The translations under genes were made by a program, and so were the position numbers. The notes beneath the pieces were generated by a model. The model was not told the DNA's origin. It saw nothing but the letters and a program-made list of their open reading frames with translations, and did not search any database. A stretch of 64,000 nt of DNA from a virus (taxonomy: Duplodnaviria; Heunggongvirae; Uroviricota; Caudoviricetes), in the IMG/VR virus record IMGVR_UViG_3300019458_000004, positions 1 to 64,000 of that record. One strand, written 5' to 3'. Positions 26,737 through 64,000 of the stretch are shown piece after piece. Within the stretch, counting starts at the first letter, position 1; the number at the start of each line of letters is the position of its first letter.

Positions 26737-26743
26737 AAACTTT

Positions 26744-29385: not shown

Positions 29386-29414
29386 AAAAATCCTCGGATA
29401 AAAAACGCCAAACG

Positions 29415-29484: not shown

Positions 29485-29527
29485 ATACAGGTTGAGATAA
29501 CCGTTCAACTTTCGACCCGAATTTTAA

Positions 29528-47418: not shown

Positions 47419-47919
47419 TTAAAATTCAAACTCCAAACCACCAGTATACAATCTATTTGAAAAGGCTTGGCCAGTTAACCAAACCGGGCCTAGAACACGA
47501 ATCGAAACAGATCCACCAATTACAAGATCATTTCTTAAATCATAACGATAAGAATTCGAAGATACTTCAGTGCGTTTAACTCCAACAGGACCGCATCCCG
47601 CGTGTAAACCAAGCTTGAATCGAGAACGCGCGGCTGATGCTAATCGAGCCGCTAATCGATAATGATCCTGATTGTGAACATGGACATTCACAGTTTGACG
47701 TTGATTCTGATGTTGTTCATTATCTTGGTCTTGATATTGCTTTTGTTGTGGCTCCCGTTCTTTCGGAAAGCTAAGTCTATGAACAGCCGGGACCTTGGGT
47801 TTAGGCTTCGGCGGGCATGGACAATTCTTTTGTGGTTCAGATGAATTAGAAATAACCGTCTCTTCTCCGCCTGCCACGGCAATATTTGCCAACATTAAAA
47901 ATGTTAGAATAATTTTCAT
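47419..47919 (-). CDS. secreted outer-membrane beta-barrel-like protein
   Basis: Signal peptide [25 protein letters not shown] linker. C-terminal ..YTGGLEFEF ends in Phe as in OMP barrels. Confidence 0.45.
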
Positions 47920-47995
47920 AATTTTCTCTTCAATAATATTAAACCGATTTACATTTTAATGCAACTACAATTTTTTTCGATAATATCAGCATCCT

Positions 47996-48208
47996 TTAAT
48001 AAGTATATTCAGATCTATACAAATCAATTCCACGAAGAATCTCATCATTGGGTTTAACTTCTTGTGGAATAATATCAGCCTGCAATACAACCAATACTCC
48101 CAATTCCGTTGTGGTCATTGAAATTATTTGGCATCCTTCCTGGATAAATCCATTCAAAGTTTTCTCAGCTATTTCAACTGGAATAGTTTTGACAAATTGA
48201 GTAATCAT
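47996..48208 (-). CDS. hypothetical protein
   Basis: 70-aa ORF. Confidence 0.35.
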   Translation of the reverse strand: MITQFVKTIPVEIAEKTLNGFIQEGCQIISMTTTELGVLVVLQADIIPQEVKPNDEILRGIDLYRSEYTY

Positions 48209-48489
48209 TTCATTCCTCCATACTTCTGATTCATTTTCATTTGCCGGTAATCTTCAAGATAATAAACTTTTCCAATTGGATGTCTCTCTTGTTCTAATTT
48301 AGCAGAAAATTTAATAACAATTGCGTTTTTATTTAAAAGTGATTCAGCTTCAATTTGTTTTTCATCTTTATGGATATTTTGAATTTCATAAAGAAACTCT
48401 TGAATTGTTTCTTCAAAGTGAAGCCGAACAATTTCCCATTGACCTCGATCTCGAAACTCAAGAATGTCACCAACTAAAAACAATTGCAT
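48205..48489 (-). CDS. hypothetical protein
   Basis: 94-aa ORF. Confidence 0.35.
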   Translation of the reverse strand: MQLFLVGDILEFRDRGQWEIVRLHFEETIQEFLYEIQNIHKDEKQIEAESLLNKNAIVIKFSAKLEQERHPIGKVYYLEDYRQMKMNQKYGGMK

Positions 48490-48490
48490 A

Positions 48491-48721
48491 TTATTCTCCG
48501 TATTTCATAAAGTCTTTAGCTTGATCATAGGCTCTTGATGCCATATCTTCGTAAGCGGCTTGATAAAGCTCGGATTGATAAGTATTAGTTAGTTCTTCTA
48601 GTTCAGCTTCAGTAAGATCCTGCCCATTATCGACATATTCGGCAGCAATAACCCAAACTCCTTCTCCTGACTCAAAATCAATATCGATAATACCAACTTC
48701 ACGATCATTTAGAGTATACAT
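48491..48721 (-). CDS. hypothetical acidic protein
   Basis: 76-aa ORF. Confidence 0.35.
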   Translation of the reverse strand: MYTLNDREVGIIDIDFESGEGVWVIAAEYVDNGQDLTEAELEELTNTYQSELYQAAYEDMASRAYDQAKDFMKYGE

Positions 48722-48736
48722 AATTAATTCTCCCTA

Positions 48737-48765
48737 TTGACATTTGGTTTAAAATATGATAAAAT
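48737..48765 (+). promoter_or_regulatory. sigma70-like promoter (TTGACA-17-TAAAAT) on the plus strand, antisense to flanking genes
   Basis: TTGACA at 48737-48742, 17-nt spacer, TAAAAT at 48760-48765. Confidence 0.3.
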
Positions 48766-48928
48766 AAAAACTGGTCTTGAACATTACAAAGCAATAAATT
48801 TGAAGTTAGTGATTGATAGGAGCAGTGTGTCTTGAATAAACTATAAGACATTATGCACCACAAAGTTTGTAAAACATAGTATAAAATCTATTGAATAAAC
48901 GAGAACTAGGTATTTGTAGTTACTCACT

Positions 48929-49225
48929 TTATTTTCCTCCGCATTGGCAGCCTGAAACCAACAAAACCTTATAAAAATCACAAAAACAAGTTTTAGATTC
49001 TTCTATTTCATTTTCAAACCAATCAATAAGCTCAAAGTTTTCAGGTAGAATTGATTCTAAATCATTTGGAAAAATAGAAATGTCAGAACAACTTTTAAAA
49101 AGATCTGTTACTTCAAAACCATCAGAAGTAAACATATTACAAAATAAGTTTTCATTATTACCTACGTAAAAAACAAATGGTTTATCATATCCAGTCACAG
49201 AAATTAGATCTCCAATAGTTTTCAT
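48929..49225 (-). CDS. hypothetical protein
   Basis: 98-aa ORF. Confidence 0.35.
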   Translation of the reverse strand: MKTIGDLISVTGYDKPFVFYVGNNENLFCNMFTSDGFEVTDLFKSCSDISIFPNDLESILPENFELIDWFENEIEESKTCFCDFYKVLLVSGCQCGGK

Positions 49226-49506
49226 CTTTTACCTCTAAAAAATTTCTTAACATCTGATAAAAACGTTGGCAGCAACCGCATTGCGATATCAAGATTGGGT
49301 TCTTGAATTGCTTTCTCCATTGATTCTGCTTCAATTCTGATAAAATCTTCAGTGTTATCAATATCTTTCACAACTTCCATTCTTTGAAGAATTTCAATGT
49401 TACGAATTGCTTTTTCAATATCCAGGGTATTCTTATTCTTCCTAAGACGTTCTAAATCTTCAGGAAGAATGAAAGTTATGTTTTCATTTTTGCGTTCAGC
49501 ACTCAT
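49222..49506 (-). CDS. hypothetical protein
   Basis: 94-aa ORF; a TTGACA-17-TTATTA promoter-like element lies upstream on the minus strand at about 49545-49582. Confidence 0.35.
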   Translation of the reverse strand: MSAERKNENITFILPEDLERLRKNKNTLDIEKAIRNIEILQRMEVVKDIDNTEDFIRIEAESMEKAIQEPNLDIAMRLLPTFLSDVKKFFRGKR

Positions 49507-49693
49507 GCCCTTATTAAATGCAAACGGTTTGCCAAAGCTAAGTATTTGATTTTTAATAACCCCTTAATTATGTGAATGTCAAAAAACTAAGTAGGTTTTA
49601 GGATAAGCCAATAAATACAAAGATGTTATGTTTTTATACAATGTCAAAACTATTTACATTGCATCTTAATACTAAACCAGTTAATATGGTTAT

Positions 49694-50257
49694 ATGATAA
49701 CGGCGATTTATTTAAGAGTGTCCACCCAAGATCAATCTACTGATTCACAACGTGCTGAAATTGATTTATTTATTAAAGCAAAAGGCTATACAAACTTTCG
49801 GGTTTATGAGGATAAAGCAACCGGCACTAATAACAATAGGCCAATGCTTAAGAAGTTATTGCAAGACTGCCACGCTGGGCAGGTTAGCATTGTAATATGC
49901 TACAAATTAGACAGATTCTTCCGTTCTCTTAAAGATCTAATTAATACGCTGCAGCAATTAGACGAATTAAAGATTGCTTTTATTTCATTACGTGACAACG
50001 TAGATCTTTCAACCCCTTCTGGTCGCCTAATGATGCATATGATCGGCGCATTCGCTGAATTCGAAGCAAGCCTTATTCAGGAACGCGTTAAAAGCGGTTT
50101 AAAGGCAGCCAAACAGCGAGGGGTTGTCTTGGGTCGGCCCAAGCTTCACGAACCCTCTATAGCCCGTTTAATGCGAAAACAAGGGCATTCTATAAGAGAG
50201 ATCAGCCGAAAGTTAAACATTCCGAAGAGCACAGTTAACGAATTAATTAGAACATAG
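49694..50257 (+). CDS. small serine recombinase (resolvase/DNA-invertase family, Hin/Gin-like)
   Basis: IYLRVSTQDQ (catalytic Ser), DRFFRS, C-terminal HTH IREISRKLNIPKSTV. 187 aa; the only plus-strand gene inside the minus block. Confidence 0.85.
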   Translation: MITAIYLRVSTQDQSTDSQRAEIDLFIKAKGYTNFRVYEDKATGTNNNRPMLKKLLQDCHAGQVSIVICYKLDRFFRSLKDLINTLQQLDELKIAFISLRDNVDLSTPSGRLMMHMIGAFAEFEASLIQERVKSGLKAAKQRGVVLGRPKLHEPSIARLMRKQGHSIREISRKLNIPKSTVNELIRT

Positions 50258-50583
50258 CCCATTGACGATTTAGATGATATCTGAAATAAGAGTTTTCAAG
50301 TACAACATTTTTACCATCAAACCAATAAACATCTTTTCTATGAATTAAACCGTCAACCCAATAATGGGCATATAGATTCTTATTCAATCGACGTGTTTTA
50401 TCCTGTGGACGTACTTCTATATCCTCAGAATGAATTTCAACTTATCAGTTAAATCTTTATCATCTTTAGATAAAGTAAACTTAAAATTATAACTATTTCC
50501 ACACGCCGTGTTAGGTAAACAAATCATCTCAACAAAATTAGGCAGTTCGCCTCTTACTTGATATTTAAAACTACTTCCAGATC

Positions 50584-50889
50584 TTAATCATAACACTGTT
50601 CCATATTCAAATATTTTAAATGAACATAATAAACAGTACTTGAAACAGTAATACCTTTTGGCGAAACTGAGAATTCTAAATTTTTGCGTCTGAAATAAGA
50701 ATTCCCATCTTCACCTATTTCAACTGCAATTTCATATTGTTTACGTCGTCGATCACTAACGGTTTCAACTTTGTAAGTTTGTTTTAAAGATTGAACAATT
50801 TCATTTAAGAATTCAGCATTACGTTTTAATGTTTCCAGATTGGACACAACTTCATTCGAGATCAATTTTTGAAACATACAATACCTCAT
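50584..50889 (-). CDS. hypothetical protein
   Basis: 101-aa ORF. Confidence 0.35.
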   Translation of the reverse strand: MRYCMFQKLISNEVVSNLETLKRNAEFLNEIVQSLKQTYKVETVSDRRRKQYEIAVEIGEDGNSYFRRKNLEFSVSPKGITVSSTVYYVHLKYLNMEQCYD

Positions 50890-51320
50890 TTTAAAATTAG
50901 TTTAAAAATATTCGCTTCGGCATTCCTTAAATATTCTAATACCTCATTCGAGGTTCCAGAAAAGGTATTAAGATCCTTAGCACGTTGTTTATACGTTTCC
51001 AAACGGGTTAGATGCCCTTTGGAGATCGGTTTTCCCTCACGTTTGGTATAACGCTCGGAAACGGTTTCCGCTGATTCAATTATGAATACAGGATTGACCT
51101 TGAAACCCGCCCTTGTTAACGGGTCAACTAATTCAGACACACTAAAAGGCGTTTCAATTAGAATAGGTTTGGTTGCAATACTACCAAGTTCTAGAATTGT
51201 AGCTAAGTATGTTTTCTTATATTGATCGTGCGCGAAATACTCATATTGATCTTTTAATTGATTACATATTGTGGTTTTCCCCGATCCGGGGACGCCGACA
51301 ACTAGGTATATTGGTTGCAT
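50886..51320 (-). CDS. P-loop NTPase/kinase
   Basis: Walker A VVGVPGSGKTT. Confidence 0.45.
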   Translation of the reverse strand: MQPIYLVVGVPGSGKTTICNQLKDQYEYFAHDQYKKTYLATILELGSIATKPILIETPFSVSELVDPLTRAGFKVNPVFIIESAETVSERYTKREGKPISKGHLTRLETYKQRAKDLNTFSGTSNEVLEYLRNAEANIFKLILK

Positions 51321-51362
51321 TAGCTATTCCTTTCATCTTACTTAATTATAGTGCGAGAATGC

Positions 51363-51647
51363 TCATTCTCTACTCATTCTAATATAACGCTCTAAAACAT
51401 TCCCGATGTGCGTCAATGTTTCGGTTGAATAGGTTGAAATTATTTCAGTGAATATACTTTCAAGATCAACTTCTTTTAGGCTTGGGCTTGGTTTAAATTC
51501 CCAATGATCTGGAATAACAGCATTCCGCAGATATAGTGTTTCCGCTATATCAAACCAAAAATTCATAGCGGTTGATATATCGTCGGAACCGTCTAAGAAC
51601 ATATTTAATTCTTGTTTTAATTCTATATATTCACGCGTTTGTTTCAT
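51363..51647 (-). CDS. hypothetical protein
   Basis: 94-aa ORF. Confidence 0.35.
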   Translation of the reverse strand: MKQTREYIELKQELNMFLDGSDDISTAMNFWFDIAETLYLRNAVIPDHWEFKPSPSLKEVDLESIFTEIISTYSTETLTHIGNVLERYIRMSRE

Positions 51648-51650
51648 AAT

Positions 51651-51959
51651 TTACCTCACTCGAATTGATGCATAATAATATACATCCTGACTATAACACT
51701 CTTCGTCGTCACAATCAGTATGTGTTTCCTCGGTTTCCGTTGAATTAGGTAAAGAATCAACTTCAACTTCCAAGGCATTCGAGATCTCATAGCCTTGCTG
51801 CACCAATCCTTCCATTGCATCATTCAAGGCTTCAACTAAGTTGTTTCCAATGCCGGTTGAAACCGTTTCAAACCTAGTATAGGAAAAACCACACCCTTGA
51901 AAATATTGTTCGTGTTCAATACCATGATCTACAATTTCATATTCCTGTATTGTTTTCAT
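51651..51959 (-). CDS. hypothetical acidic protein
   Basis: 102-aa ORF. Confidence 0.35.
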   Translation of the reverse strand: MKTIQEYEIVDHGIEHEQYFQGCGFSYTRFETVSTGIGNNLVEALNDAMEGLVQQGYEISNALEVEVDSLPNSTETEETHTDCDDEECYSQDVYYYASIRVR

Positions 51960-52009
51960 AGTTCAACCCTTCCTTTTCATTTTTCATATTTAGGCACACA
52001 CAACTCTTA

Positions 52010-52651
52010 TTATTTAGGTAAAAATACTTCGCCGATAACTTTCAATCTTTTAACCCTTACTTTTCCGCCAGCGCACCCGATAATATTTTTTATATGTACT
52101 TTAACGGCTATAAGTGTATCCCCTTCATTCCAGAAGTTAGGTGTTGAAACATGTAAACCATTAGAACACGACACGATTGAATTCTCATTGTATTCTTTAC
52201 AGAGTGCAATTTCGCCATCGCGGTAAATAAATTCCGAATCATGTAAACTTCGATATTCACCGTCCTTAATTTTATTAACTTTTTTATAGAATATATAAGT
52301 ATTTTTAATTGGAATTATATCCAAAGCACACCCGATCAATGTTTTAATGCAGTCTTTTAAATCAATTTTAAAGACACCGAATTTAAGCCAAATTTCACCG
52401 TAAACCTGCGCATCGCCGTAAACCTGCGCATCGCCGTAAACCCGCGCATCGCCGTAAACCCGCGCATTGCCGTAAACCCGCGCATCGCCGTAAACCCACG
52501 CATTGCCGTAAACACTCAAATTTTTTTCAGATTCAATATATCCACCAATTTCACCTTTTTTAACAAACCCGAATGCTGTAATACATTCGATTCTGAAAAG
52601 TTTTCGACCAAAAATATCAACCGATAAATCTGTTCGTAATTTATATTTCAT
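52010..52651 (-). CDS. hexapeptide-repeat (VYGDAR)n protein, possible beta-helix
   Basis: VYGNAW-VYGDAR-VYGNAR-VYGDAR-VYGDAQ-VYGDAQ-VYGE, encoded by an 18-bp tandem DNA repeat at about 52375-52500. Confidence 0.45.
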   Translation of the reverse strand: MKYKLRTDLSVDIFGRKLFRIECITAFGFVKKGEIGGYIESEKNLSVYGNAWVYGDARVYGNARVYGDARVYGDAQVYGDAQVYGEIWLKFGVFKIDLKDCIKTLIGCALDIIPIKNTYIFYKKVNKIKDGEYRSLHDSEFIYRDGEIALCKEYNENSIVSCSNGLHVSTPNFWNEGDTLIAVKVHIKNIIGCAGGKVRVKRLKVIGEVFLPK

Positions 52652-52700
52652 AACTTCCTCCGTTTTTCATTTTAAAGTTTAATTGTGTCGGAATTATGTT

Positions 52701-53123
52701 CTATTTTAACACAATCGTTTGGAATGTTTTCGGCGCACCGCATGCATGGAATTCAAACCCTAAACAACGTGCCGCATTCTCATTCTTAAAGAAATAGATA
52801 AACTCCATTGGTTTGATCCCATTTCGCGAGCTCTTTGATCCTTTAGAGTCAATGAACGGGTTATATGCAGGTATATGTCGATTGAAACCTTGTACAGCGG
52901 CATTGACATCCAACACCAAACTAGACAAGTCACGCCGTGCTTCAGATCTTCCAAACAAAGTTGATTTCGCAGGCGTCGTAACAGGCAGTTTGGCATACTT
53001 CTTAGAATCAATGTCAATGTTCACCACGACCTTGAAAGGATACCCGCCGTAACTCGTATCGTGAATCGAAGCCACAATTGATTTAATTGTAAACATAGTA
53101 TTCCTTTCAATGCCTAAACCCAA
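52701..53123 (-). CDS. hypothetical protein
   Basis: 140-aa ORF (possibly starting at Met10). Last gene of the minus block. Confidence 0.4.
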   Translation of the reverse strand: MGLGIERNTMFTIKSIVASIHDTSYGGYPFKVVVNIDIDSKKYAKLPVTTPAKSTLFGRSEARRDLSSLVLDVNAAVQGFNRHIPAYNPFIDSKGSKSSRNGIKPMEFIYFFKNENAARCLGFEFHACGAPKTFQTIVLK

Positions 53124-53640
53124 GGTCGCGCTACGATAACCTTGGGCGGCATGCTAAATAGTCAATTTATAAATCAGAGAAAACAGAACAATTGAATACG
53201 CAAACAATATAGCTTTGTATTCTTGCTTCATTGTATCCTCCTAATTTAGGAATTCAATTAAAAGAAAACCGATCACTGCGTCAGTCCAGCCCGCAACGGA
53301 ATACCCTAACAACGTAGGCTGCAACGCTTATTATATACACCTCATCCTTTCTTGCAACGCTTGATGCGTCGCACTAATTAAATAATACAGGAAGCATGCC
53401 AAACGAATTCTCTTTTAAATACAACGAGCGCCTATTTTTTTGCGCATAACAATTATACAGAAAACAGAATACTATAAGGAATATATAGCTGTTAAGAATC
53501 TATATAGTGTATATTAGTTTAACATATAGCCGATATAACAATCCTGGGTTGTTATTTTAGTGTGTAAAGTAAACTTTATACCCGATAAGGTATAAGTTAA
53601 AATTAATGAGTTTAAACAGAACGTGTATTAGGGATAAGAG
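53124..53640. promoter_or_regulatory. AT-rich non-coding region with iteron-like repeats (candidate origin or divergent control region)
   Basis: No ORF. Repeats TGCAACGCTT x2 and (A/C)TATATAG(C/T) x3. Hairpin CCCAAGGT..ACCTTGGG. Sits at the minus/plus strand switch. Confidence 0.3.
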
Positions 53641-53977
53641 TGTATGTAATACCCGTCTTGACTAAGCGAGAGCCCGGACATGAGCGCGTGCCCGAGGGGC
53701 CGTGAAGCGGGGTGCCCGCGCGTACCAAGGGATGATCGGGCGAAAGCTCCGCGCCGAAGTAGATCCCTTCCTTCTGGTCGGGACGGCCAGAGGTTAGCTC
53801 CTGGCCCACCGGAAAGTAGCCCCGCCACGCGCGATTGGCGCGCGACATGGCGATCTTCATTTTCGTGGCGAGGTCGAGAGCGAAAAAATGACGGCTGACC
53901 GCCTCGAGATATTGCTCGAGTTGGGGATCAATGCCGTGATGGGTGACGTCGAGGACAAGCGGACGAATGGGCTTCAT
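53612..53977 (-). pseudogene. fragment of a high-GC 2OG-Fe(II) oxygenase (isopenicillin-N-synthase-like), central part
   Basis: ..[76 protein letters not shown]. Lies in a high-GC island unlike the rest of the genome. Confidence 0.5.
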
Positions 53978-54039
53978 GGGGATGACGTTACCAGCAGGCC
54001 GGCGGAATTGACAGCGCCCGGAACCCGTTGGATTCTGGG

Positions 54040-54165
54040 GCTCCAGTGGTTCTCGTCATCGATATCTCACCGTTACTCAAGCCCGGCCTAGACGCTAGCC
54101 CGACCGCCTCCGCGTTGGGCCAGGCCTGTCGGGAGCACGGCTTTTTCTACGTCACCCACCGCGTG
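54040..54165 (+). pseudogene. N-terminal fragment of the same 2OG-Fe(II) oxygenase in inverted orientation
   Basis: Plus-strand frame gives [38 protein letters not shown], then diverges. It shares the 10-bp ACGTCACCCA with the minus-strand fragment. Confidence 0.4.
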
Positions 54166-54424
54166 TTGGAGCTTCCCCGCACGCCGGATCGCCCCCGACG
54201 AACTTGAAGCGATCCTTACCCGTCTTCGCATCAAACACGTGAGTCGTGCCGTCTCGGTAGCCGCCGTGGACCCAGAAATACTTGCAGTCGGGACTGAAGA
54301 TCGCGAGGCCCCCGTCGGGGATTGCTCGCGCCGGCTTCTTGCCCTCGATAAAACAAAGCTCCCACGAATACTCGCTCGTCGCGACGAAGAAGAGCTCGCT
54401 CCCCTCGCAATGGCGCCCGAGCAT
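54152..54424 (-). pseudogene. fragment of a WD40/TolB-like beta-propeller protein (high-GC origin)
   Basis: IFSPDCKYFWVHGGYRDGTTHVFDAKTGK resembles a propeller blade. Confidence 0.3.
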
Positions 54425-54572
54425 ACAATCCTCTCGTAGCTATGTCCGGTATACTGTGCCACCCCCAGGGGGTAGGTACTTCAAGAAGGACGGCACGCAC
54501 TTGTAGGTTAACACGCATAATTTTTCTATTTTTTGCTGGTCATATTTCATACCTAAATTAACAACTTATAGT

Positions 54573-55226
54573 ATGGAATATAAAATATGTAAAATTTGTG
54601 AGATAAAAAAACCCTACTTTTTTAAAAAATTAAGCTCAAATAGAGTAAAAATTGCTAAAGACGGTGAAGGTCATAATTGGCACGGAAATACTTGCTGGGA
54701 GTGCGTAAAAAAATCTAAAAGAAAGCCAGAAAAATTTTATACTTGTTTTATTTGTAACAAAGATTTTGCTTCTGCAAGAAGCGGGATAAAATTTTGCTCT
54801 TCTGGTTGCGCTAAAAAGGTTCATAGTGGGTATAAAAGAAAAGTTCCTATTTCAAAAGAATGTTTGGTTTGTAAGTTCATTTTTTCTTCGGCTCAGCCTA
54901 AAAAGCTTTATTGTGGAATAAAATGTCATAAAAAAGGCCAAAAACAAACAGAATGGTTTAAGGCTTATAAAAAAGGCCAAAAAAGGATAGAAAGACGAAC
55001 AAAGCGTAAAGCCAAGCTAAAAGGTGTTAGTTGGTTAGATATTGAGGTAGTTTATAAACTATGTCCGCCAGGCCGGGAAGTAGATCATATTATTCCTCTC
55101 AGACATAAACTTGTTTGTGGTTTACATGTTCCTTGGAATTTACAATATTTATCAAAAACCGATAATAGCAAGAAATCTAATCTATTTGATGGCACTTCAG
55201 AAAATCTTAGTTGGAAAAAATCCTAG
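54573..55226 (+). CDS. HNH endonuclease with N-terminal zinc fingers
   Basis: Multiple CxxC pairs, then [11 protein letters not shown]...[10 protein letters not shown]. First gene of the plus block. Confidence 0.65.
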
Positions 55227-55510
55227 TTACATTTTTAAGCTTAACTATATCCCAGGCTCAATATGATTCTAGTTACAAGAATCACTTGTCCCCACTCGGT
55301 TACAAAACACTCTTTATAGGCTTGTTTTTATAGAAATGTCCCCGAACGGTTACAGCGGGATAATGTTTACCATTACGTAATAAGATACTAACAAGATAGT
55401 ATAGTTTTGTAGTTATCTTAGTGTGTGTATTATGCGCGAAAGGGTAGGAGTTGAATGGCAGAATAAAAGGGTCTTATTTTGTGTTTATTTGGCTTATAGG
55501 AGCTTCTCAA

Positions 55511-55762
55511 CTATTCGGCAGGGGGTTCAGAGGGGGCTCCTGCAATTTGGCTTATAGCGTCAAGGAATTGGCCTATTTTAAGTTTAACACACTCGTTAAT
55601 CGCTTCTTCTGAGGCTTCTGGTAACTCTTTTCGGCAGACTGGTTCAAAATAGGCGGTCATTGCAATCTGATCTACAGTAATTTGAAAATTCACAGTTCCA
55701 CTATGCTCTTGCTTCATGGCACAGGCACTGAAAAAGAACAATAAAAGGATTAGGTATTTCAT
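55511..55762 (-). CDS. putative lipoprotein
   Basis: MKYLILLLFFFSACAM with a lipobox-like FSAC. AGGAG RBS. Confidence 0.4.
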   Translation of the reverse strand: MKYLILLLFFFSACAMKQEHSGTVNFQITVDQIAMTAYFEPVCRKELPEASEEAINECVKLKIGQFLDAISQIAGAPSEPPAE

Positions 55763-55794
55763 ACAACTCCTAGCTTTATATTAGGCACAAAATA

Positions 55795-55824
55795 AGTATA
55801 TCATATTACTTTTCCTATGTCAAA
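55795..55824 (-). promoter_or_regulatory. sigma70-like promoter (TTGACA-18-TATACT) for the lipoprotein gene
   Basis: On the minus strand: TTGACA at 55824-55819, 18-nt spacer, TATACT at 55800-55795. Confidence 0.35.
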
Positions 55825-56152
55825 ATGAATATTATGCCGGTTTTGACAATTCTAGTTACGGAAAAGTCTTCAATTTGAGAGTCAGTAAGAGTTGTTGATT
55901 TTTAGAAATCTGTGCGAAAAATGTCATGAAATATGGGTATTTTTTGTGGCTAGTGGATTTGGTTTTTGGGCATTTATTTTGAAAAACCCGTTAATTTATG
56001 ACGTTTTTAAAAAATTCGATCCCATTTTTTGGGATTTTATTTTTCGAGGGTTCTAAAGGGCTCCTAGTTAGGGAGATAATTTAGGGATGAGATCATAATA
56101 ATATTAACAACTAATTCTAGTAACACATACTTTTTCGGGATTTTAGAGGATT

Positions 56153-56719
56153 ATGAAAAAGGCAGTTTTTTTAAATAAAGAGCTTAATAAATTCCTAGTT
56201 ACAAGTTCTTGTCCGGGGGTTTTTGGGTTCATAAATTTTATTGAGAAAAAGGTGTGGTTAAGCTACTCAGAAAACGTCACCGAAGCGTTAGCAAGGAATA
56301 TAAAATTGATTGAAACCCGCCAACATTCGATTAAGAATTTAGAGTATTGGGATATATGCGTTTTTGAGAAAAGCGCCAGTAAACAAGAAGCCAAGAATAA
56401 CTTCCGACTTTATTGTCAAAGCTACCGGAAAAAGGGGCTTCAAATCTTAAATCGAGAGTTTAAGTATAGGGTATGGGGGGGTATAGAAGAAGACTTTCGG
56501 GATAAAACCCGCTTTTTGTATTATATTTGGATAGGCACGAAAACTAAGAAGCTAGCTATTCTAGGAATATTTGATAAGGCGGTTGAAGGCGAGCGGTATT
56601 TAAAAGAGTTTCAAGAAGGCAACGCTGTTGAATTTCCTCCAAGTTCTAAGAGATTAGTGATAGAATATAAAGGAACAGACTTAAACCAAAAAGAATTTAA
56701 GCAAATTTTTAAGCCATGA
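56153..56719 (+). CDS. GIY-YIG-like nuclease (weak)
   Basis: PGVFGFINFIEKKVWLSYSENVTEALARN fits the GIY-x10-YIG..R spacing. Confidence 0.4.
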   Translation: MKKAVFLNKELNKFLVTSSCPGVFGFINFIEKKVWLSYSENVTEALARNIKLIETRQHSIKNLEYWDICVFEKSASKQEAKNNFRLYCQSYRKKGLQILNREFKYRVWGGIEEDFRDKTRFLYYIWIGTKTKKLAILGIFDKAVEGERYLKEFQEGNAVEFPPSSKRLVIEYKGTDLNQKEFKQIFKP

Positions 56720-56934
56720 AACTCTATTCAAAACACGATAGGCTATTAAACAATAGCTGTGAATTAAATAATAATGATGTCTTTGTAAGAGTACGTTTTA
56801 ATGAGGTATATAAAAAATGTGGGTGGGGGTATGATAGTAAATCTTACAGGCTTAGGAATCAATTTTGGCTTGACATTAAAAGTTTAGGTAAAAATTATTT
56901 TAATCAACCATTCATTTTAAAACCAAAGAAATGA
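56716..56934 (+). CDS. hypothetical protein
   Basis: 72-aa ORF, ATGA overlap. Confidence 0.35.
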   Translation: MKLYSKHDRLLNNSCELNNNDVFVRVRFNEVYKKCGWGYDSKSYRLRNQFWLDIKSLGKNYFNQPFILKPKK

Positions 56935-56935
56935 T

Positions 56936-57151
56936 ATGTGGGATCGTTTTAATGATAGAATTGACCGTTTTAATCTTCGGAAAAGTTTAATATCGGGCTG
57001 GGGGAGCAGCCTACATAAAAATCCATCAAACGGTTTAAATAAAGGACTTTGGGTGGATTACGGTCTTACAGATCATTGTATTTCAGTAACCAATATAAAA
57101 TATAAGGAATTTCAATATTTTCAACTTCCAAGGCCAATAAAAGATAAGTAA
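56936..57151 (+). CDS. hypothetical protein
   Basis: 71-aa ORF. Confidence 0.35.
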   Translation: MWDRFNDRIDRFNLRKSLISGWGSSLHKNPSNGLNKGLWVDYGLTDHCISVTNIKYKEFQYFQLPRPIKDK

Positions 57152-57186
57152 CTAGACTTTTATTTATTTTATGTTATAATTGTTTC

Positions 57187-57567
57187 ATGTCGAAAAGAAA
57201 ATTTAAGATTGTACCAAGTAAGTCGGTTTTTTCAGATGTAGATGATACCTTAATTATGTGGGAGCCAGAAGGCGGTAATTTTAAAAACCACCCCGAAGCA
57301 ATTGAAATCGATATGTTCGGCACCAAGAAGCTTTTTCTTCCAATGTGGGACAACATCCAAAAACTTAAAATATTCTATGAACGTGGTTATGAAGTAGTAG
57401 TTTGGAGTTTAAGTTCAAAAGAATGGGCCGATAAAGTCGTGGATGCTTTAGGTATTAGAGAATGGGTTGATTATTGTGTGTCGAAGCCAGATTTTTATCT
57501 AGACGATAGAGAAGTTGACCATTTTATGCTACCGGAGAAACGTATTTATTATCCGCATAAGCCCTAA
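57187..57567 (+). CDS. HAD-superfamily phosphatase (small, nucleotidase-like)
   Basis: Motif I FSDVDDTL, motif II VVWSLSS, motif III/IV K...DD(RE). Confidence 0.55.
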   Translation: MSKRKFKIVPSKSVFSDVDDTLIMWEPEGGNFKNHPEAIEIDMFGTKKLFLPMWDNIQKLKIFYERGYEVVVWSLSSKEWADKVVDALGIREWVDYCVSKPDFYLDDREVDHFMLPEKRIYYPHKP

Positions 57568-57755
57568 TGAAAAACTTCCGCGCTCTTCTTCGATATGCAC
57601 TCTATTACCCTAACGCCGAGCTTCATTTAATTTATCGGATTAAATATAATAAATCGGCCTGCATAACCTATACTAAAAATAAACTATGGGTTAAAAAGCT
57701 AAAGTCTAGCAAAATTTTTACTGTAAAACGAATTCTTATTTGTAGAATTCACTAA
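57567..57755 (+). CDS. hypothetical protein
   Basis: 62-aa ORF. Confidence 0.3.
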   Translation: MKNFRALLRYALYYPNAELHLIYRIKYNKSACITYTKNKLWVKKLKSSKIFTVKRILICRIH

Positions 57756-57763
57756 GGAGTTAT

Positions 57764-57961
57764 ATGAAATTAGATAAACGTGTTTGTAAAAAATGTATGA
57801 AATTACATGCTAGAGCTTATTCTGGAAAAAAGGGTAAAAACACTTTTTGGCGCGACGAACACGGTTTGCTTTGGAATGGGAAGATCTGCGGCGGCTGTAA
57901 TCGTGAGCGTATTCGTGAAGCTGTAGCGAAACACCGGATTAAGAAGTTAAGTGGTCAATAA
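57764..57961 (+). CDS. hypothetical zinc-ribbon protein
   Basis: CKKCMKLH...CGGCN. Confidence 0.35.
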   Translation: MKLDKRVCKKCMKLHARAYSGKKGKNTFWRDEHGLLWNGKICGGCNRERIREAVAKHRIKKLSGQ

Positions 57962-58269
57962 TGGATTTAACCGATCAAATAGAGTCGTATCTTTATGAGG
58001 CCGATTTATGCAGTAATATTATTCAATGGTCGAATTATGTTATTGATAAATTAGAGGGTCGCCCAGATCTTCAAGAAGTTTATATTGATGAACTCAAACC
58101 AATAATTGAGGAATACCTTCAAACGATAAAAGCCTTACAATTCTTATTTGAGGAATACTTTGTTTGGGAAAGAAAGATACAGTCTACTAGGAATTTACGT
58201 TATAGAAGATTGTATAAATTAATTTTGAAGGATTTGGCTAAGCCGGTTCCACCAACTTTAAGTTTTTAG
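57961..58269 (+). CDS. hypothetical protein
   Basis: 102-aa ORF. Confidence 0.35.
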   Translation: MDLTDQIESYLYEADLCSNIIQWSNYVIDKLEGRPDLQEVYIDELKPIIEEYLQTIKALQFLFEEYFVWERKIQSTRNLRYRRLYKLILKDLAKPVPPTLSF

Positions 58270-58804
58270 TTTTCCAATCTGCAACTTCACAATGCGGTAA
58301 TTCATAGAAAGCACTTCCCGGCGCTCCATACCATTTTATCTTAAAATCAGCAGCAGCATTATGTGCATCTATTGCCGGTTTGACAACGGTATTAAACCAA
58401 TCTTTAGGCCATTCTGCACCATTTATATGTAATTTAAAAATATCGAGTCCCGCACCAAAATTATGGGAGCTTTGCCCATAATGAGCTTTGGAAGTGCCTT
58501 TTTTAAAATATTCTTCTTGTGCTAATTTTCCCCTTCCAGCATCGCTAATATGGGCTTCCGGATGACTGGCTTGCAATTGTACAAACCACGCTTTTAGACC
58601 TTCGTGAAATCCAGGATAACGATTAAATATAAGTTCACACTTGGAACATTTACCGTCGTTGGCGTGTTTGGCCGGTTTTTGTGCAGGTATTTTCAAGGCT
58701 TCCGGTTTAATTAGAGAATCTTCTTTTTTAGGCTGAGAAGCCGCGCCAGAACTATCATCGGATTTAAAAAATAACGATAAAAGAAGTTTAATTAAATTAA
58801 CCAT
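58238..58804 (-). CDS. peptidase M15 (VanY/L-Ala-D-Glu peptidase-like) endolysin with N-terminal signal/SAR-like segment
   Basis: SSHNFGAGLD (SxHxxGxAxD) and downstream ELPHCE. N-terminal hydrophobic MVNLIKLLLSLFF. Confidence 0.55.
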   Translation of the reverse strand: MVNLIKLLLSLFFKSDDSSGAASQPKKEDSLIKPEALKIPAQKPAKHANDGKCSKCELIFNRYPGFHEGLKAWFVQLQASHPEAHISDAGRGKLAQEEYFKKGTSKAHYGQSSHNFGAGLDIFKLHINGAEWPKDWFNTVVKPAIDAHNAAADFKIKWYGAPGSAFYELPHCEVADWKTKNLKLVEPA

Positions 58805-58929
58805 AACAAGATATTTAAAGTTGTTAACTTAACAACTTATATAAAGAAACTCACGACTAACAGCCATTCCTATGGCAATACAAAAGCGCAAGTAGTGAGT
58901 AGTTTCTTTTTATTTTTATAAGGAGTTAT

Positions 58930-59202
58930 ATGTTAAAATATCGAAACGGGTTTCTTTTATTTTTATTTTCTATGGGTTTCGGAAAAACCCTTTTTTATCC
59001 AGCCTCTTTTGTTGATGCAGCAATTTTATTAATTACCGGAGTCGTTTTTGCTTATCTCGAAGCCAAAACTCAAGATAAAAAAATTGCTGAATTTGAACAA
59101 ATGTTTCTCAAGCATCAAGCCGAATTTTCACTTTTAAACGATAAAATTTCTTCTTTTAAAGTAATTCAACAAGCTAAGCCCGGAGCATTAACTTTTAGAT
59201 AA
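58930..59202 (+). CDS. holin-like small membrane protein
   Basis: Two TM helices (FLLFLFSMGFG, AAILLITGVVFAYL). Located next to the endolysin and terminase genes. Confidence 0.35.
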   Translation: MLKYRNGFLLFLFSMGFGKTLFYPASFVDAAILLITGVVFAYLEAKTQDKKIAEFEQMFLKHQAEFSLLNDKISSFKVIQQAKPGALTFR

Positions 59203-59208
59203 TAAAAT

Positions 59209-59643
59209 ATGTCAGATAATATTGATCAACTTGCACAAAACTTTAAAACCCTAAAAGAATTACGTCAATATTGTGATAGTCAATATCGGGTGATTGTTCA
59301 ATTAAATAAAAAAATTGTTTCATTAGAAGAAGAAAATAAACATTTAAAAGAAATGCTCACCAAATCTACCCCAATTCTTGAAGAAGAAAACGAAACAATT
59401 GCCATCTATAAAGATATTACTGATGAACTTGCTGTTTGTCTAATGCAAATTAAACTTCTTCGTGATCGTTGTTCAAACGGAATGACCGAATTAACTTTCG
59501 AAGAAGCAAAAAAGTTAGATATTTACACAAAACTCCTTATTCAATTAAAAACCGGAGAAAAGCCAGAAGAAAGTCTTACGAAAACATTATCAGATGAAGA
59601 ACTTTTAAAGCTTTTAAACGAAGAAATTTCTAAAAATGGATAA
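59209..59643 (+). CDS. putative terminase small subunit (positional)
   Basis: 144-aa coiled-coil protein directly upstream of and overlapping the large terminase. Confidence 0.35.
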   Translation: MSDNIDQLAQNFKTLKELRQYCDSQYRVIVQLNKKIVSLEEENKHLKEMLTKSTPILEEENETIAIYKDITDELAVCLMQIKLLRDRCSNGMTELTFEEAKKLDIYTKLLIQLKTGEKPEESLTKTLSDEELLKLLNEEISKNG

Positions 59644-61096
59644 GAAGCTTATCAGTAAAAGAGCAGCAACAGATGAATTATGGCGTCGAGGTGCTTTATC
59701 TTTATTTAAACTAGACGAAGCCCAAAAAGATTTCTCTGAAAAAATTAAAGCTTCTCCTGATAAAATCATTATTATTCTTTCCTCGCGGCGTATTGGTAAA
59801 ACTTTTGGCGCCCTCGTTCTGGCGGCGGAAACCTGCTTAAAAAAATCCGGAGCCGTAGTTAAGTTTCTAGCCCCAACTAAAATAATGATTAATGACATTG
59901 TTGAAAAAACAATGCCCCTTATTTTTGAAGATTGTCCTGAAGAATTAAAGCCACAACAGTTAAAAAGTAAATATACTTATAAATTTCAAAATGATTCACG
60001 ATTAGAACTCGCCGGAGCCGATTCCGGCCATGCCGAAAAACTTCGTGGTAGTTTTGCCGATCTTTGTATTGTAGATGAAGCGGGATTTTGTAACGACTTA
60101 ACGAATACTGTGCGTAGTGTTCTTATTCCGACCACAACTAATACCAAAGGAAAAATTATTCTTTTGAGCACTCCGCCAACTGATCCTGAGCATGATTTTA
60201 TGAAATTTGTCGAGGAAGCGGATCTAAAAGGGACATTGATAAAAAAGACGATTTATGATAATCCACGTATTAAACCGGATGAAATTGCTGAAATTCTAGC
60301 AGCCTATCCTGGTGGTGCCAATCACCCAGACTTTAAGCGCGAATACCTTTGTATTGTACAAAAGAACTTAGAATATGCGGCTGTTCCAGAATTCACTGAT
60401 GAATTAGAAAAAGAAATTGTGGTTAATTGGGAAAGACCTCCCCACTTTGATTACTACGAATCTATGGATTTAGGTGGGAAAGATTTAACCGTTGTTTTAT
60501 TTGCTTATTTTGATTTTCGAAAAGCTGTAATTGTGATTGAAGACGAATTGGTTATGAACTTTCAAGAGAAAGATAATCATATTGGTCTTTTAGTAAGACA
60601 GATTAAAGAAAAAGAAGCCCAACATTTCTCCGATGTCCTTGTTCATGAGGTTAAACTGCCTTTTTTGAGGGTTTCAGATATCGATTATATTGCTTTGGGC
60701 GAGATTCGAAAACATAGTAATAATACTATTGATTTCAAGCTAGCTAAGAAAGACGACAAGCCTGCGGCAGTTAACAACTTACGTATAATGCTTTCGAACA
60801 AACGGATTATGATTAATCCGCGTTGTAAGACATTAATTAAGCACCTTAGAAACGTTAAGTGGTCTAAGAGCAACCGTAATGTGTTTGACCGGTCGGTGGA
60901 CATGGGACACTACGATGCCGTGGACGCGTTAATTTACCTTACCCGCTCCATAGTATTTAGTAAAAATCCATATCCGGCTAATTTCGGTTTAAATCAAACA
61001 GACTTAATATTTCTAGGTGATTCGAACAAACCCCGAGAATCGGCGGTTGATGTTTTTAAGACTATTTTTAAAGTAGGGAAAAAATATGGCCGATAA
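59636..61096 (+). CDS. terL: terminase large subunit
   Basis: Walker A-like ILSSRRIGKTF, Walker B LCIVDEAGF, C-terminal nuclease-like domain. Confidence 0.8.
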   Translation: MDKKLISKRAATDELWRRGALSLFKLDEAQKDFSEKIKASPDKIIIILSSRRIGKTFGALVLAAETCLKKSGAVVKFLAPTKIMINDIVEKTMPLIFEDCPEELKPQQLKSKYTYKFQNDSRLELAGADSGHAEKLRGSFADLCIVDEAGFCNDLTNTVRSVLIPTTTNTKGKIILLSTPPTDPEHDFMKFVEEADLKGTLIKKTIYDNPRIKPDEIAEILAAYPGGANHPDFKREYLCIVQKNLEYAAVPEFTDELEKEIVVNWERPPHFDYYESMDLGGKDLTVVLFAYFDFRKAVIVIEDELVMNFQEKDNHIGLLVRQIKEKEAQHFSDVLVHEVKLPFLRVSDIDYIALGEIRKHSNNTIDFKLAKKDDKPAAVNNLRIMLSNKRIMINPRCKTLIKHLRNVKWSKSNRNVFDRSVDMGHYDAVDALIYLTRSIVFSKNPYPANFGLNQTDLIFLGDSNKPRESAVDVFKTIFKVGKKYGR

Positions 61097-63113
61097 TAAG
61101 CGCGGAGATAAATCAGTTTATTTTGCTAATCGAGAACCCAACGAATTAGCCGCAGATCTTTTATACAGAGCAAAAAGTTTTTATAGTTTTCTTAATAAAA
61201 ACGATTACTTAGTTAAAGTTGCCGATAACTGGCGTTTTTATTACGGTCTTTTCCGTGACAGTCTTTATCTAGGTCATAAAGTCAGTTATACCGGTGAACA
61301 AGGTGAATTAGTTTCCCTTCCTGTAAACGAATTCCGAAATATTGCTCAACATATTTACGTAATGATTACGGCTAATCGTCCGACGATGGAAGCTCGTGCG
61401 ATTAATACTGATGCTAAGTCGCTTTCCCAAGCTTATCTCGCAAACGGCATTCTTGATTACTATATGCGTGAACGTAATCTTGAAGACGCATTAAAAGCAT
61501 GCACAGAAATGGCGGTCGTTCTTGGTTCTGGTTTCATTAAAATGGAATGGAACGCTATGGCTGGTGAACCATATGATTTTGATCCCGAAACCGGTGCTTA
61601 CAATTATCAAGGAGAAGTTGAATTTACTAATCTTTCTCCATTTGATGTTGTATATGATGGCACGCGCGAACAATACGATCCAGACTGGGTTTTAGTACGT
61701 AGTTTTAAAAACCGTTACGATTTGATGGCTAAATACCCAGAACTAGCTGAAAAAATTCATACTGTTTCTACTAAAGACGACGGGCGACAATATAGGCTTT
61801 CAGTTTGGTCAAATGATGATACGGATGATATTGCGGTTTATGAATTTTTCCATAAAAGAACAGAATCTGTCCCGGAAGGCAAGTATTCATTATTTGTTGC
61901 TGAAGATATTACTCTAATGACCGTCCCACTTCCTTATAGGGCTCTACCGGTCTTTAGAATGACCCCAGGCAACATCATGGGAACCCCCTATGGTTACACT
62001 CCTCTTTTCGATATCTTCCCGCTCCAAGAGGCTTTAAACTCATTATTCAGCACTTTTATGACGAACTTGAACGCTTTTGGTGTTCAAAGTATTTACGTGC
62101 CTCGCGGGGCCGATATTTCTATCGCTTCGCTTGAAGGCGGAATGAATGTTATTCAAGGTAATGAAAAGCCAGAACCTATTCAATTATCCTCTACTCCTCC
62201 TGAATTATTTGAGGCCATTAAGCTTATTCGTGAAGAAATTGAAACCATTTCGGGTATTAGTAGCGTAACTCGTGGACAGCCAGAAGCGTCTCTTAAATCT
62301 GGCAACGCTTTAGCGCTTGTACAGTCAATGTCATTACAATTTATTTCTGGTCTTCAACAAAGTTATATAAAGCTTATTGAATCAGTTGGAACGCAACTTA
62401 TCAATAATCTTAAGGATTTTGCTAAAGCACCTCGTATTGCGGCAATCGTCGGTAAATACAATAAAACCCTTCTAAAAGAATTTACTGGCGAAGATTTGTC
62501 GGCCATTAATCGTGTAGTTGTAGATGTGGGCAATCCTCTCAGTAAAACTACAGCCGGGCGTGTACAAATGGCTGAACAAATGCTCCAAATGAATCTTTTA
62601 AAAACACCACAAGAATATTTTCAAGTTATTAAAACCGGTGAACTGGATTCAGCTTTCGAAGGCGATCTTCATGAACTCTTTTTAATTAAACAAGAAAACG
62701 AAAAAATGATGGAAGGGTTCTCACCTCTTGTTTCGCCAATTGATCAACATCGAACACATATTAATGAACATCGCGGGGTATTAGCCGATTCAGATATTCG
62801 TGAAAATCCTGAATTAGTCCGTGTAGTTATGGATCATATTGCACGACATATGGATGCTCTAAGAAATACCGACCCTGAATTACTACAACTTGTTGGCGAA
62901 CAACCTTTAAATCCAATTCCGCAACCTCTTGGAACTTCTCAAGCCCCTCAAGGACCACAAGGAAGTTATTCAGCTTCTGAAACTATGGCTCCACAAGGCG
63001 GTTTACCTCAAAGTGGTGAAAAATTAAATACGGGTGAAACTTTACCAAAACCTGCTTCCCCTCCTCCGCCCTTTGAATCATTACCAACTAATCCAGGAGA
63101 TATTCCACAGTAA
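61086..63113 (+). CDS. putative portal protein
   Basis: 675-aa ORF immediately after terL with a Pro/Gln-rich C-terminal tail; assignment by size and position. Confidence 0.5.
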   Translation: MADNKRGDKSVYFANREPNELAADLLYRAKSFYSFLNKNDYLVKVADNWRFYYGLFRDSLYLGHKVSYTGEQGELVSLPVNEFRNIAQHIYVMITANRPTMEARAINTDAKSLSQAYLANGILDYYMRERNLEDALKACTEMAVVLGSGFIKMEWNAMAGEPYDFDPETGAYNYQGEVEFTNLSPFDVVYDGTREQYDPDWVLVRSFKNRYDLMAKYPELAEKIHTVSTKDDGRQYRLSVWSNDDTDDIAVYEFFHKRTESVPEGKYSLFVAEDITLMTVPLPYRALPVFRMTPGNIMGTPYGYTPLFDIFPLQEALNSLFSTFMTNLNAFGVQSIYVPRGADISIASLEGGMNVIQGNEKPEPIQLSSTPPELFEAIKLIREEIETISGISSVTRGQPEASLKSGNALALVQSMSLQFISGLQQSYIKLIESVGTQLINNLKDFAKAPRIAAIVGKYNKTLLKEFTGEDLSAINRVVVDVGNPLSKTTAGRVQMAEQMLQMNLLKTPQEYFQVIKTGELDSAFEGDLHELFLIKQENEKMMEGFSPLVSPIDQHRTHINEHRGVLADSDIRENPELVRVVMDHIARHMDALRNTDPELLQLVGEQPLNPIPQPLGTSQAPQGPQGSYSASETMAPQGGLPQSGEKLNTGETLPKPASPPPPFESLPTNPGDIPQ

Positions 63114-63119
63114 GTTTTT

Positions 63120-63353
63120 ATGGGAAATTGGCAAGAAAAAAATCTAAAGAACTCTTCTGATGTTTGGTTCGTTGCTTTTTTACTGCATAAGAATTGTTCA
63201 ATTATTAAGTACGATATCATGGAGCGTGGTCGCGTTCGGTGTTATTTTGCGCTTAATGACAAAGAATGGCAAGATTATAAGCTCGAATTTAATAATAGTG
63301 AGATTATCAAATATAAAGCTACAATCGAAAGAATTAAAGACCTCGGATATTAG
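63120..63353 (+). CDS. hypothetical protein
   Basis: 77-aa ORF. Confidence 0.35.
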   Translation: MGNWQEKNLKNSSDVWFVAFLLHKNCSIIKYDIMERGRVRCYFALNDKEWQDYKLEFNNSEIIKYKATIERIKDLGY

Positions 63354-63397
63354 TTATTTAACAATATAAATGTGTTTTGTTACGTTAAAGGTTAAAA

Positions 63398-64000
63398 ATG
63401 GCTCCTCAAATATATCCCGTTACACTGCTTGATTCTAATCAAGTCATTCAATATGTATACGACGAAGATACCCAATCACTTCGTACCACAGCTACTGCAA
63501 CAATTATTGGCGGGGATTTAACCGTTGATATTGATGGTATTTATGCGCTATTAACAAATCCAGATCCAGATAACATTGGTTTAATTGGGCATATCCGAGC
63601 GGCGTCACCAAGCGATTCAGATCAAACCAACCGCTTAACTTCTATAACCAATGGAATTATACACGCGTTAGATGTTTCTATACATAACTCTGATGGCGCT
63701 CCTATTGATGTAACGAATCCTATTTTTGTTGATACAAGTTCAACCGCTTCAATTCCGACAACTTTTAACGTTTCAGCGGCAGTAGCCGGAACGGAATACT
63801 CACAAGTAATTCCGATTGGAACTAAACGATTTATGGCTAAAATTCGATCAGGCGATGCTAAAACTCAATTTGCTTATGTATCTGGCCAAAGTGGAACGAA
63901 TTACACGACAATTCGAACCGGTTGTTTTTATGAAGAAATTAATTTAAATCTAACCTCCGCTATAACTTTTTATTTTCAGACCAATCAAGCAGGTCAAACA
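63398..64000 (+). CDS. structural-module protein, 5' partial (runs off the window)
   Basis: Open frame from ATG 63398 to the window end (MAPQIYPVTLLDSNQ...), not in the supplied track because it has no stop. Confidence 0.4.
   Translation, partial: MAPQIYPVTLLDSNQVIQYVYDEDTQSLRTTATATIIGGDLTVDIDGIYALLTNPDPDNIGLIGHIRAASPSDSDQTNRLTSITNGIIHALDVSIHNSDGAPIDVTNPIFVDTSSTASIPTTFNVSAAVAGTEYSQVIPIGTKRFMAKIRSGDAKTQFAYVSGQSGTNYTTIRTGCFYEEINLNLTSAITFYFQTNQAGQT

Follow-up and report, generated by a model that had tools for sequence, protein, structure and literature searches.

Phage genomes capture foreign DNA by illegitimate recombination, which leaves mosaic joints and moron-type insertions between transcription units, morons being intact genes with a promoter and a terminator of their own. 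In Escherichia coli, inversions or double template switches have been described at repeats of approximately 12–23 bp. In vitro, chimeras formed during multiple displacement amplification (MDA) are mostly inverted joins, more than 70% use 2–21 nt of complementarity, and a typical product has its sequence inverted, with a deletion or duplication in between (PMC1855051). Here we analyse a GC-rich island in a 64,000-nt stretch of DNA of a tailed phage (IMG/VR record IMGVR_UViG_3300019458_000004, positions 1 to 64,000; the window in the following). The island, at 53652–54500, holds pieces of a bacterial oxygenase gene and of a WD40-type gene, and we read it, with a probability of about 0.55, as inert captured foreign bacterial DNA, a recent and non-functional insertion with an inversion at a short repeat. 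Captured DNA and amplification chimera, the two kinds of candidates for such an island, are both already known, and no new gene, system or mechanism is involved.

An island of foreign composition at the strand switch

The window represents part of an AT-rich phage genome with 32–35% GC, in which a two-change-point likelihood fit delimits an island of 849 nt with 62.1% GC inside versus 31.9% outside, the support ranges of the borders being 53649–53672 on the left and 54494–54518 on the right. In a scan with 100-nt windows (mean of the whole stretch 0.346, standard deviation 0.072, run threshold ≥52% GC), the longest GC-rich run extends over 913 nt at 0.60 and the runner-up over 288 nt at 0.545. 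The island is the sole such high-GC patch in the window; a preliminary description, made from the sequence by eye, had proposed an island of this kind with a GC profile as a check, and the profile confirms a single long GC-rich run.

The location of the island is the non-coding spacer between two modules of opposite orientation. The minus strand carries nearly all genes of positions 1–53123 and constitutes the replication module, with a family-B DNA polymerase, a primase/helicase, a ribonucleotide reductase, an exonuclease and nucleotide-metabolism genes, while plus-strand genes start at 54573 and head towards the packaging genes terS/terL (59209–61096) and the portal gene (61086–63113). The cumulative GC-skew minimum at approximately 53300–53500 is found at this divergent strand switch, and the placement of the island there, likewise proposed in advance, is borne out by both gene orientations and skew.

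Within the island, the gene tables of the two public assemblies (ENA and Logan, see below) contain zero gene calls. There are no promoter-like sites inside it, with promoter and terminator counts not above those of shuffled sequence, and no tRNAs or known RNAs (Rfam), the sole Rfam match being sub-threshold and situated in the AT-rich flank. With respect to mobile elements, the borders display no convincing terminal repeats or target-site duplication as hallmarks of an insertion sequence or a miniature inverted-repeat transposable element, only scattered 9–13-nt matches, and a Pfam search of the open reading frames (ORFs) detects no transposase domain. At least five pieces, none of them a complete gene, make up the island, which is a mosaic composed as follows:

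53652–54500, no strand: whole foreign high-GC island (change-point fit, GC profiles)
53652–53695, no strand: piece A, GC-rich filler of 44 nt outside the oxygenase homology, which ends sharply at 53696
53696–53949, minus strand: piece B, codons ~45–126 of a 2OG oxygenase gene of the isopenicillin N synthase family, comprising DIOX_N only (Pfam DIOX_N 33–111; gapless homologue alignment; coding GC 0.69/0.46/0.74)
53940–53949, no strand: left inverted arm TGGGTGACGT, the minus strand of which encodes part of VTH
53950–54158, plus strand: piece C, 78-nt leader and oxygenase codons 1–44, inverted relative to piece B (TTG start at 54028; Pfam DIOX_N 3–35)
54149–54158, no strand: right inverted arm ACGTCACCCA, which includes the TGA stop of the minus-strand WD40-like frame
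54159–54424, minus strand: piece D, WD40-type fragment of one or two blades (phmmer; coding GC 0.61/0.50/0.73)
54425–54500, no strand: piece E, filler of ~76 nt with ~58% GC, which holds the CCCCCAGGGGG palindrome and has no Rfam match

Pieces A and E have zero matches to each other, to the rest of the phage and to all loci compared.

One oxygenase fragment broken by an inversion

The plus-strand ORF at 54028–54207 matches positions 3–35 of the Pfam DIOX_N profile (E 2.4e-6) and the minus-strand ORF at 53612–53977 positions 33–111 (E 1.8e-16), so that by their profile coordinates the two ORFs read as consecutive pieces of one DIOX_N domain (PF14226) on opposite strands. At the break lies a 10-nt inverted pair, TGGGTGACGT at 53940–53949 and ACGTCACCCA at 54149–54158, with a spacing of 199 nt and arms that are perfect over 10 nt and 83% identical over 18 nt. 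Flipping the 199 nt between the arms creates a continuous minus-strand reading which ends in ...PLHGP and shows no gap at the junction when compared with homologues. Opposite strands and an inversion at a 10-nt inverted pair had both been recognized in the preliminary description, and the Pfam matches and the gapless rejoining agree with them; the breaks, which it placed at about 53923 and about 54151, are located at the arm coordinates given above.

By arithmetic, approximately 0.8 perfect inverted 10-mers are expected by chance per 1.3 kb, and two further perfect 10-nt inverted pairs are present in the same region. The 10-mer pair is consequently not significant in itself; non-random is its position, which coincides precisely with the point where the colinearity of the gene is lost. 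The codons at which pieces B and C end are the same (YVTH), and the 10-mer is common to both pieces; these two observations would be explained by a reciprocal inversion that needs one extra copy of the 10-mer approximately 200 nt upstream, while two independent template switches would need two extra copies as well as coinciding end points.

Un-inverted, the reading encompasses the N-terminal ~126 residues only, which align without gaps to eight homologues at 53–61% identity. As the full length of such an oxygenase would be 300 or more residues (a family member of 344 aa was found), the earlier proposal that flipping restores one intact gene does not hold. The homology stops abruptly, as 19 of the 20 best DNA alignments with homologues from reference genomes begin at 53696–53700 and the subject genes continue beyond; where the homologues run PLHGPNLFP... 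into the catalytic 2OG-FeII_Oxy domain, the island sequence diverges after PLHGP. This catalytic domain (PF03171, with the iron-binding residues) has no match in any ORF of the island. A single uninterrupted oxygenase frame is absent, split by the inversion and cut at 53696. The minus-strand ORF itself contains ~85 homologous residues instead of the ~110 first assumed, its first 10 residues and everything past ...PLHGP being unrelated. By its sequence, the island oxygenase is to be considered a gene fragment rather than a family member able to function. The fragments possess zero internal stops and have retained the residues invariant across the eight aligned homologues, which suggests that the insertion is recent and has spent little time in the AT-rich genome.

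A WD40-type fragment and the donor of the foreign DNA

The second gene represented in the island is of the WD40 type. An exhaustive phmmer search with piece D, needed since a word-index search with it delivered nothing, retrieves 1229 matches, the best of which are proteins of 1000–1700 aa with up to 21 matched stretches; Pfam confirms these best relatives as WD40 proteins with 15–23 WD40 stretches each. With a 232-aa relative (P0135), piece D shares 48% identity over 79 aa. Piece D itself has no Pfam match and, at approximately 80–90 residues and cut upstream by a stop codon at ~54437, contains too few blades for a WD40 propeller. Of the initial label ‘TolB/WD40-like’ only the WD40 part thus stands, and TolB is to be dropped.

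Pieces B, C and D are alike in overall GC (0.62), in GC at third codon positions (0.73–0.74) and in the pattern of GC over the codon positions, which is compatible with an origin from one donor genome. For the reconstructed N-terminus of the oxygenase, 579 significant homologues with at most ~67% identity are found, from Acidobacteriota, Acidimicrobiia, Myxococcota, cyanobacteria and other bacteria. When each GTDB species is represented by one reference genome, the highest identities are 63% (a metagenome-assembled genome of Acidobacteriota) and 68% over residues 30–126 (Hyalangium versicolor), followed by Acidimicrobiia, Myxococcota, cyanobacteria, Planctomycetota and Variovorax. The viral contigs of IMG/VR encode no relative of this oxygenase family, the INPHARED phages contain no near-identical island DNA, and among plasmid records the sole DNA match covers 110 nt at 78% (a Nonomuraea record), again with no near-identical DNA. 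Collectively, these observations indicate that the donor was bacterial and not a virus, namely an unsequenced high-GC bacterium. The foreign origin assigned in the preliminary description is supported by composition and homologues alike. The homology search it recommended against high-GC bacteria recovers bacterial relatives with best values of 63–68% amino acid identity and no near-identical donor. Its designation as captured host DNA finds no support, as the donor has at most 68% amino acid identity to any database entry and the nearest isolated phages are related at ~30% or less.

Assemblies, junctions and relatives

Exact look-ups of four phage proteins lead to the same three records only. 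One is an ENA record, the MEGAHIT contig k141_894898 in ERZ27251176 (k=141, 89,293 bp), another a Logan contig of run SRR7811943 (42,203 bp, k=31), and the third assembly is the record of the Joint Genome Institute (JGI) to which the window belongs. Over 52484–64000, island included, and over 1–5528, the Logan contig and the window agree at 100% identity, and the circle completed with it amounts to 64,000 + 25,158 = 89,158 bp. The ENA contig is identical across the island, differs from the window only in the copy number of two tandem repeats and equals the circle corrected for these two indels plus exactly 141 nt. For circular molecules assembled by MEGAHIT at k=141, a terminal overlap of 141 nt is to be expected. 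The assembled phage genome is a closed circle of ~89.15 kb, island included.

The two tandem repeats are both perfect. The repeat at 5499–5553 consists of 4.6 copies of 12 nt, with two copies fewer in the ENA contig, and the repeat at 52398–52513, inside a beta-solenoid-like gene (52010–52651), of 6.4 copies of 18 nt, with one copy more in the ENA contig. The Logan contig ends exactly at these two repeats, yet runs unbroken through the island. The differences either reflect real copy-number heterogeneity or the handling of repeats by the assemblers.

Six junctions delimit the pieces (~53651/2, 53695/6, 53949/50, 54158/9, ~54424/5 and ~54500/1), and the overlap of adjoining pieces never exceeds 10 nt, much less than any k used. 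That assemblies with very different k cross all six junctions unbranched practically excludes a misjoin by the assembler. Furthermore, tiling of 849 nt and flanks by overlapping short reads would require many copies of the molecule before fragmentation, which leaves the choice between biological replication and whole-genome amplification (WGA). The same ENA batch re-assembles other JGI samples. As the three assemblies probably stem from one sample, a chimeric molecule formed before library preparation would be compatible with their agreement. A literature search with the run and sample identifiers returned no match.

With respect to its relatives, the phage appears novel, with no close isolated relative: its DNA has no match in INPHARED, and the best matches to the closest isolated phages are 30.5% for TerL and 29.9% for the polymerase. 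Only two relatives were found, L167 with a 90% identical TerL and L166 with 75%, which are syntenic with the window only rightward of 56062 and 57169, respectively. The island is absent from both, and the strand-switch region of L167 with at most 44% GC in 200-nt windows has no comparable GC patch. A GC-richer upstream stretch of L166 was considered as a counterpart of the island and rejected, as it consists of intact ordinary phage genes. In IMG/VR, the left-flank gene and a 188-aa gene retrieve nothing. The relatives of the HNH-type gene on the right are distant, the left-flank gene has homologues only in unrelated surroundings, and two scans of JGI metagenomes for an empty site produced nothing. 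The patch-free relatives fit with an island specific to this genome; as the left flank is not homologous, they do not provide a true empty-site comparison.

A serine invertase with candidate sites of its own

As already noticed in the preliminary description, a serine invertase gene is located near the island:

49694–50257, plus strand: serine recombinase of the DNA invertase type, 187 aa (Pfam Resolvase E 1.6e-43; PHROG ‘DNA invertase’ E 5.7e-60)

A perfect 16-nt inverted pair, GCCTAAACCCAAGGTC, at 47791–47806 (minus) and 53112–53127 (plus), which extends to 19 nt with one mismatch, brackets 5.3 kb (47807–53111) containing the recombinase gene. These are the only two matches of GCCTAAACCCAAGGTC in the window at up to two mismatches, versus 0.03 expected by chance. 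The left arm is in frame (PKPKV) in a 166-aa ORF (47419–47919, minus) with a signal-peptide-like N-terminus, while the right arm follows an ATG at 53110 to read MPKPKV, with a stop three codons later; an inversion would consequently swap the first 38 codons of the 166-aa ORF for a bare start codon. The right arm also begins a hairpin, CCCAAGGT...ACCTTGGG (53120–53147). Based on this arrangement, the bracketed 5.3 kb is a candidate invertase-controlled switch. As these 16-nt sites are unrelated to the 10-mer of the island and no alternative gene end is created in either orientation of the flipped 199 nt, the invertase, though present, is not implicated in the island.

Explanations of the island

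The course of events that we favour would start with chromosomal DNA of an unsequenced high-GC bacterium entering a dispensable spacer of the ~89-kb phage. The core from 53696 to ~54420 would have been one donor stretch which, on the minus strand, comprised the 3′ part of a WD40 gene, a spacer of ~78 nt and the start of the oxygenase gene up to codon ~126. Either a microhomology inversion or a double template switch would have reversed the 199 nt enclosed by the 10-nt inverted copies of ACGTCACCCA. The two GC-rich fillers of 44 and 76 nt would join the core to the phage DNA and have the look of break repair by illegitimate, end-joining-type recombination. As there is no complete gene and no convincing promoter or ribosome-binding site, the island has no function beyond lengthening the spacer.

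If the island is real, it would be a clean and very recent example of illegitimate recombination depositing scrambled cellular DNA at the most dispensable site in a phage genome, and it could provide a weak hint at the lineage of the donor or host. A further step, which we consider rather unlikely, is to read it as an in vivo record of contact between a phage of 32% GC and a high-GC unsequenced lineage related to Acidobacteriota, Myxococcota or Planctomycetota, whereby either the donor would be the real host, or fragmented environmental or co-resident DNA within the host cell would have served as filler in the repair of a break in the replicating phage genome. With the donor as the host, the base composition of the phage would be far from that of its host, and the island would in any such case present natural patchwork filler-DNA repair in a phage, including an inversion at a 10-nt repeat.

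Several points weigh against capture in vivo. A WD40-type gene occurs within 4 kb of the oxygenase gene in 0 of 80 reference loci, P0135 runs ~100 residues past the stop of the WD40 frame of the island, and one contiguous donor stretch for pieces B to D has to be presumed. A donor of 62% GC and a phage of 32% GC are an odd pair if the donor were the host. The three assemblies probably come from one sample, without independent confirmation, no other sample carries the phage proteins according to the exact-protein look-ups, and no phage is homologous on both sides of the island, so that no empty site is shown. Finally, two features of the mosaic recall amplification chimeras: the join of pieces B and C is inverted at a 10-nt overlap, within the range of 2–21 nt (PMC1855051), and a patchwork of at least five short pieces (44–270 nt) conforms to the microhomology mosaic that is a signature of chimeras (PMC1855051).

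These two features would be accounted for if WGA before library preparation, for example MDA, had stitched rare bacterial pieces between linear phage ends, with displaced 3′ ends priming at microhomologies; as no true read path would cross the ends, the assemblers would close the circle via this bridge. We judge such a chimera to be possible, on the unlikely side. Genome ends could plausibly lie at the strand switch, the phage has probably been seen in a single sample and, as for a rare template, the native donor oxygenase is not found above 67% identity in a protein collection that holds the assemblies of the sample. However, the inversion is reciprocal, with a copy of the 10-mer at either end and nothing duplicated, and three graph assemblers would all have had to follow the chimeric path as their sole or dominant one. 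Moreover, as terS/terL lie ~5 kb off, the island is not where a cos or pac site would be expected, and, to judge from their context, the ENA and JGI records would be re-assemblies of ordinary JGI metagenomes. The fold-back artefact mentioned in the preliminary description is contradicted by the lack of an inverted duplication, the arms sharing only 10 nt. The assembly chimera it also considered, which would be a de Bruijn graph joining phage and bacterial contigs via shared k-mers, might be suspected in a metagenome-derived contig with an abrupt GC jump at both borders; it is very improbable, as the Logan contig, the MEGAHIT k141 contig and the window are base-identical across all six junctions, borders and joins share no more than 10 nt, far below k, and the circle closes with an overlap of exactly 141 nt.

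Capture in vivo has also to be compared with two readings that would assign a function to the island, neither of which we find credible. A programmed inversion, in which the serine invertase flips the 199-nt segment as a genetic switch, is brought to mind by the DNA-invertase-type recombinase gene 3.4 kb to the left; the arms of 10 nt, though, have the length expected by chance in the region and are unlike the 16-nt pair of the recombinase (47791–47806/53112–53127), a complete gene exists in neither orientation, and all three assemblies display a single orientation. Functional cargo, that is a phage accessory protein (moron or auxiliary metabolic gene) encoded by the 121-aa minus-strand ORF at 53612–53977 or another ORF of the island, would be in line with the ATG initiation of this ORF and its retention of most of the DIOX_N domain. 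Still, the catalytic 2OG-FeII_Oxy domain is missing, the first 10 and last 27 residues are read-through of unrelated sequence, neither an internal promoter-like site nor a Shine-Dalgarno-like motif before the ATG is present, gene callers annotated nothing in either public assembly, and the oxygenase family is absent from the viral contigs of IMG/VR. Even jointly, all readings other than insertion in vivo and amplification chimera have a small probability. For database curation, the 849 nt should not be used for gene annotation, host prediction or auxiliary-metabolic-gene counts before a check of the reads.

Flanks of the island and further features of the phage

Two features border the island in AT-rich phage DNA:

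53124–53651, no strand: AT-rich spacer between the last minus-strand gene and the left border of the island (all ORFs shorter than 60 aa; both strands with promoter-like sites)
54573–55226, plus strand: gene of an HNH-type endonuclease, first of the plus-strand genes (Pfam HNH and NinG matches, both weak)

In the left spacer, Rfam gives a match to the ribosomal S15 leader (53182–53292, minus; 24.4 bits versus a gathering score of 39.5; E 0.0056) that stays below threshold and is probably due to chance. The HNH-type endonuclease gene is situated outside the island, 72 nt to its right. In L167, the closest relative (TerL 90% identical), an HNH-like match is found only directly upstream of terS (8988–9563); the position of the gene seems to vary among related phages, which would suit an HNH endonuclease that is mobile or associated with packaging.

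Elsewhere in the window, the family-B DNA polymerase gene (16443–19076, minus) contains an intein at residues ~308–675 of the 877-aa ORF, with Pfam matches to Intein_splicing (E 5e-14), Hint and LAGLIDADG_3/homing endonuclease domains, which sits between the exonuclease and polymerase domains. A 287-aa ORF (755–1618, minus) with a faint LAGLIDADG_3 match in the public gene table may be a free-standing homing endonuclease. ARAGORN detects a tRNA-Asn(GTT) and an unusual tRNA-like gene whose two-base anticodon is undetermined (29414–29485 and 26662–26737, both minus). Shine-Dalgarno-like motifs precede 26 of 72 ORFs versus a background of 6.6%, a frequency that is not diagnostic of the host.

Comparison with known systems

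Like isopenicillin N synthase-family 2OG-Fe(II) oxygenases, which combine PF14226 with PF03171, the island encodes an N-terminal DIOX_N domain, gapless over 126 residues; it differs from them in that the catalytic domain is missing and the remainder is split by the inversion. With moron-type insertions, the island has in common its foreign composition, its intergenic location between modules, abrupt borders and the lack of extended homology at the joints, whereas it consists of scrambled fragments only, carries no expression signals and is not kept in L166 and L167. Invertible segments of the Hin/Gin type share with it an invertase-type recombinase encoded nearby. Their sites of ~26 bp, however, flank the segment, while the arms in the island measure 10 nt and are unrelated to the 16-nt candidate sites of the recombinase, and the flipped segment of the island possesses neither alternative gene ends nor a promoter.

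As in MDA chimeras produced by phi29 polymerase (Lasken & Stockwell, 2007; PMC1855051), the island displays a microhomology-based inverted join in a patchwork of short segments; those chimeras, though, mostly come with intervening deletions and are each formed once, in contrast to the conservative inversion and the sole assembled path observed here. With the inversions at short inverted repeats and double template switches of E. coli, the island shares a reciprocal flip, here of 199 nt, with the perfect short pair kept at both junctions and nothing lost or duplicated, while its 10-nt arms are as short as or shorter than the shortest repeats reported and the event would have taken place inside captured DNA.

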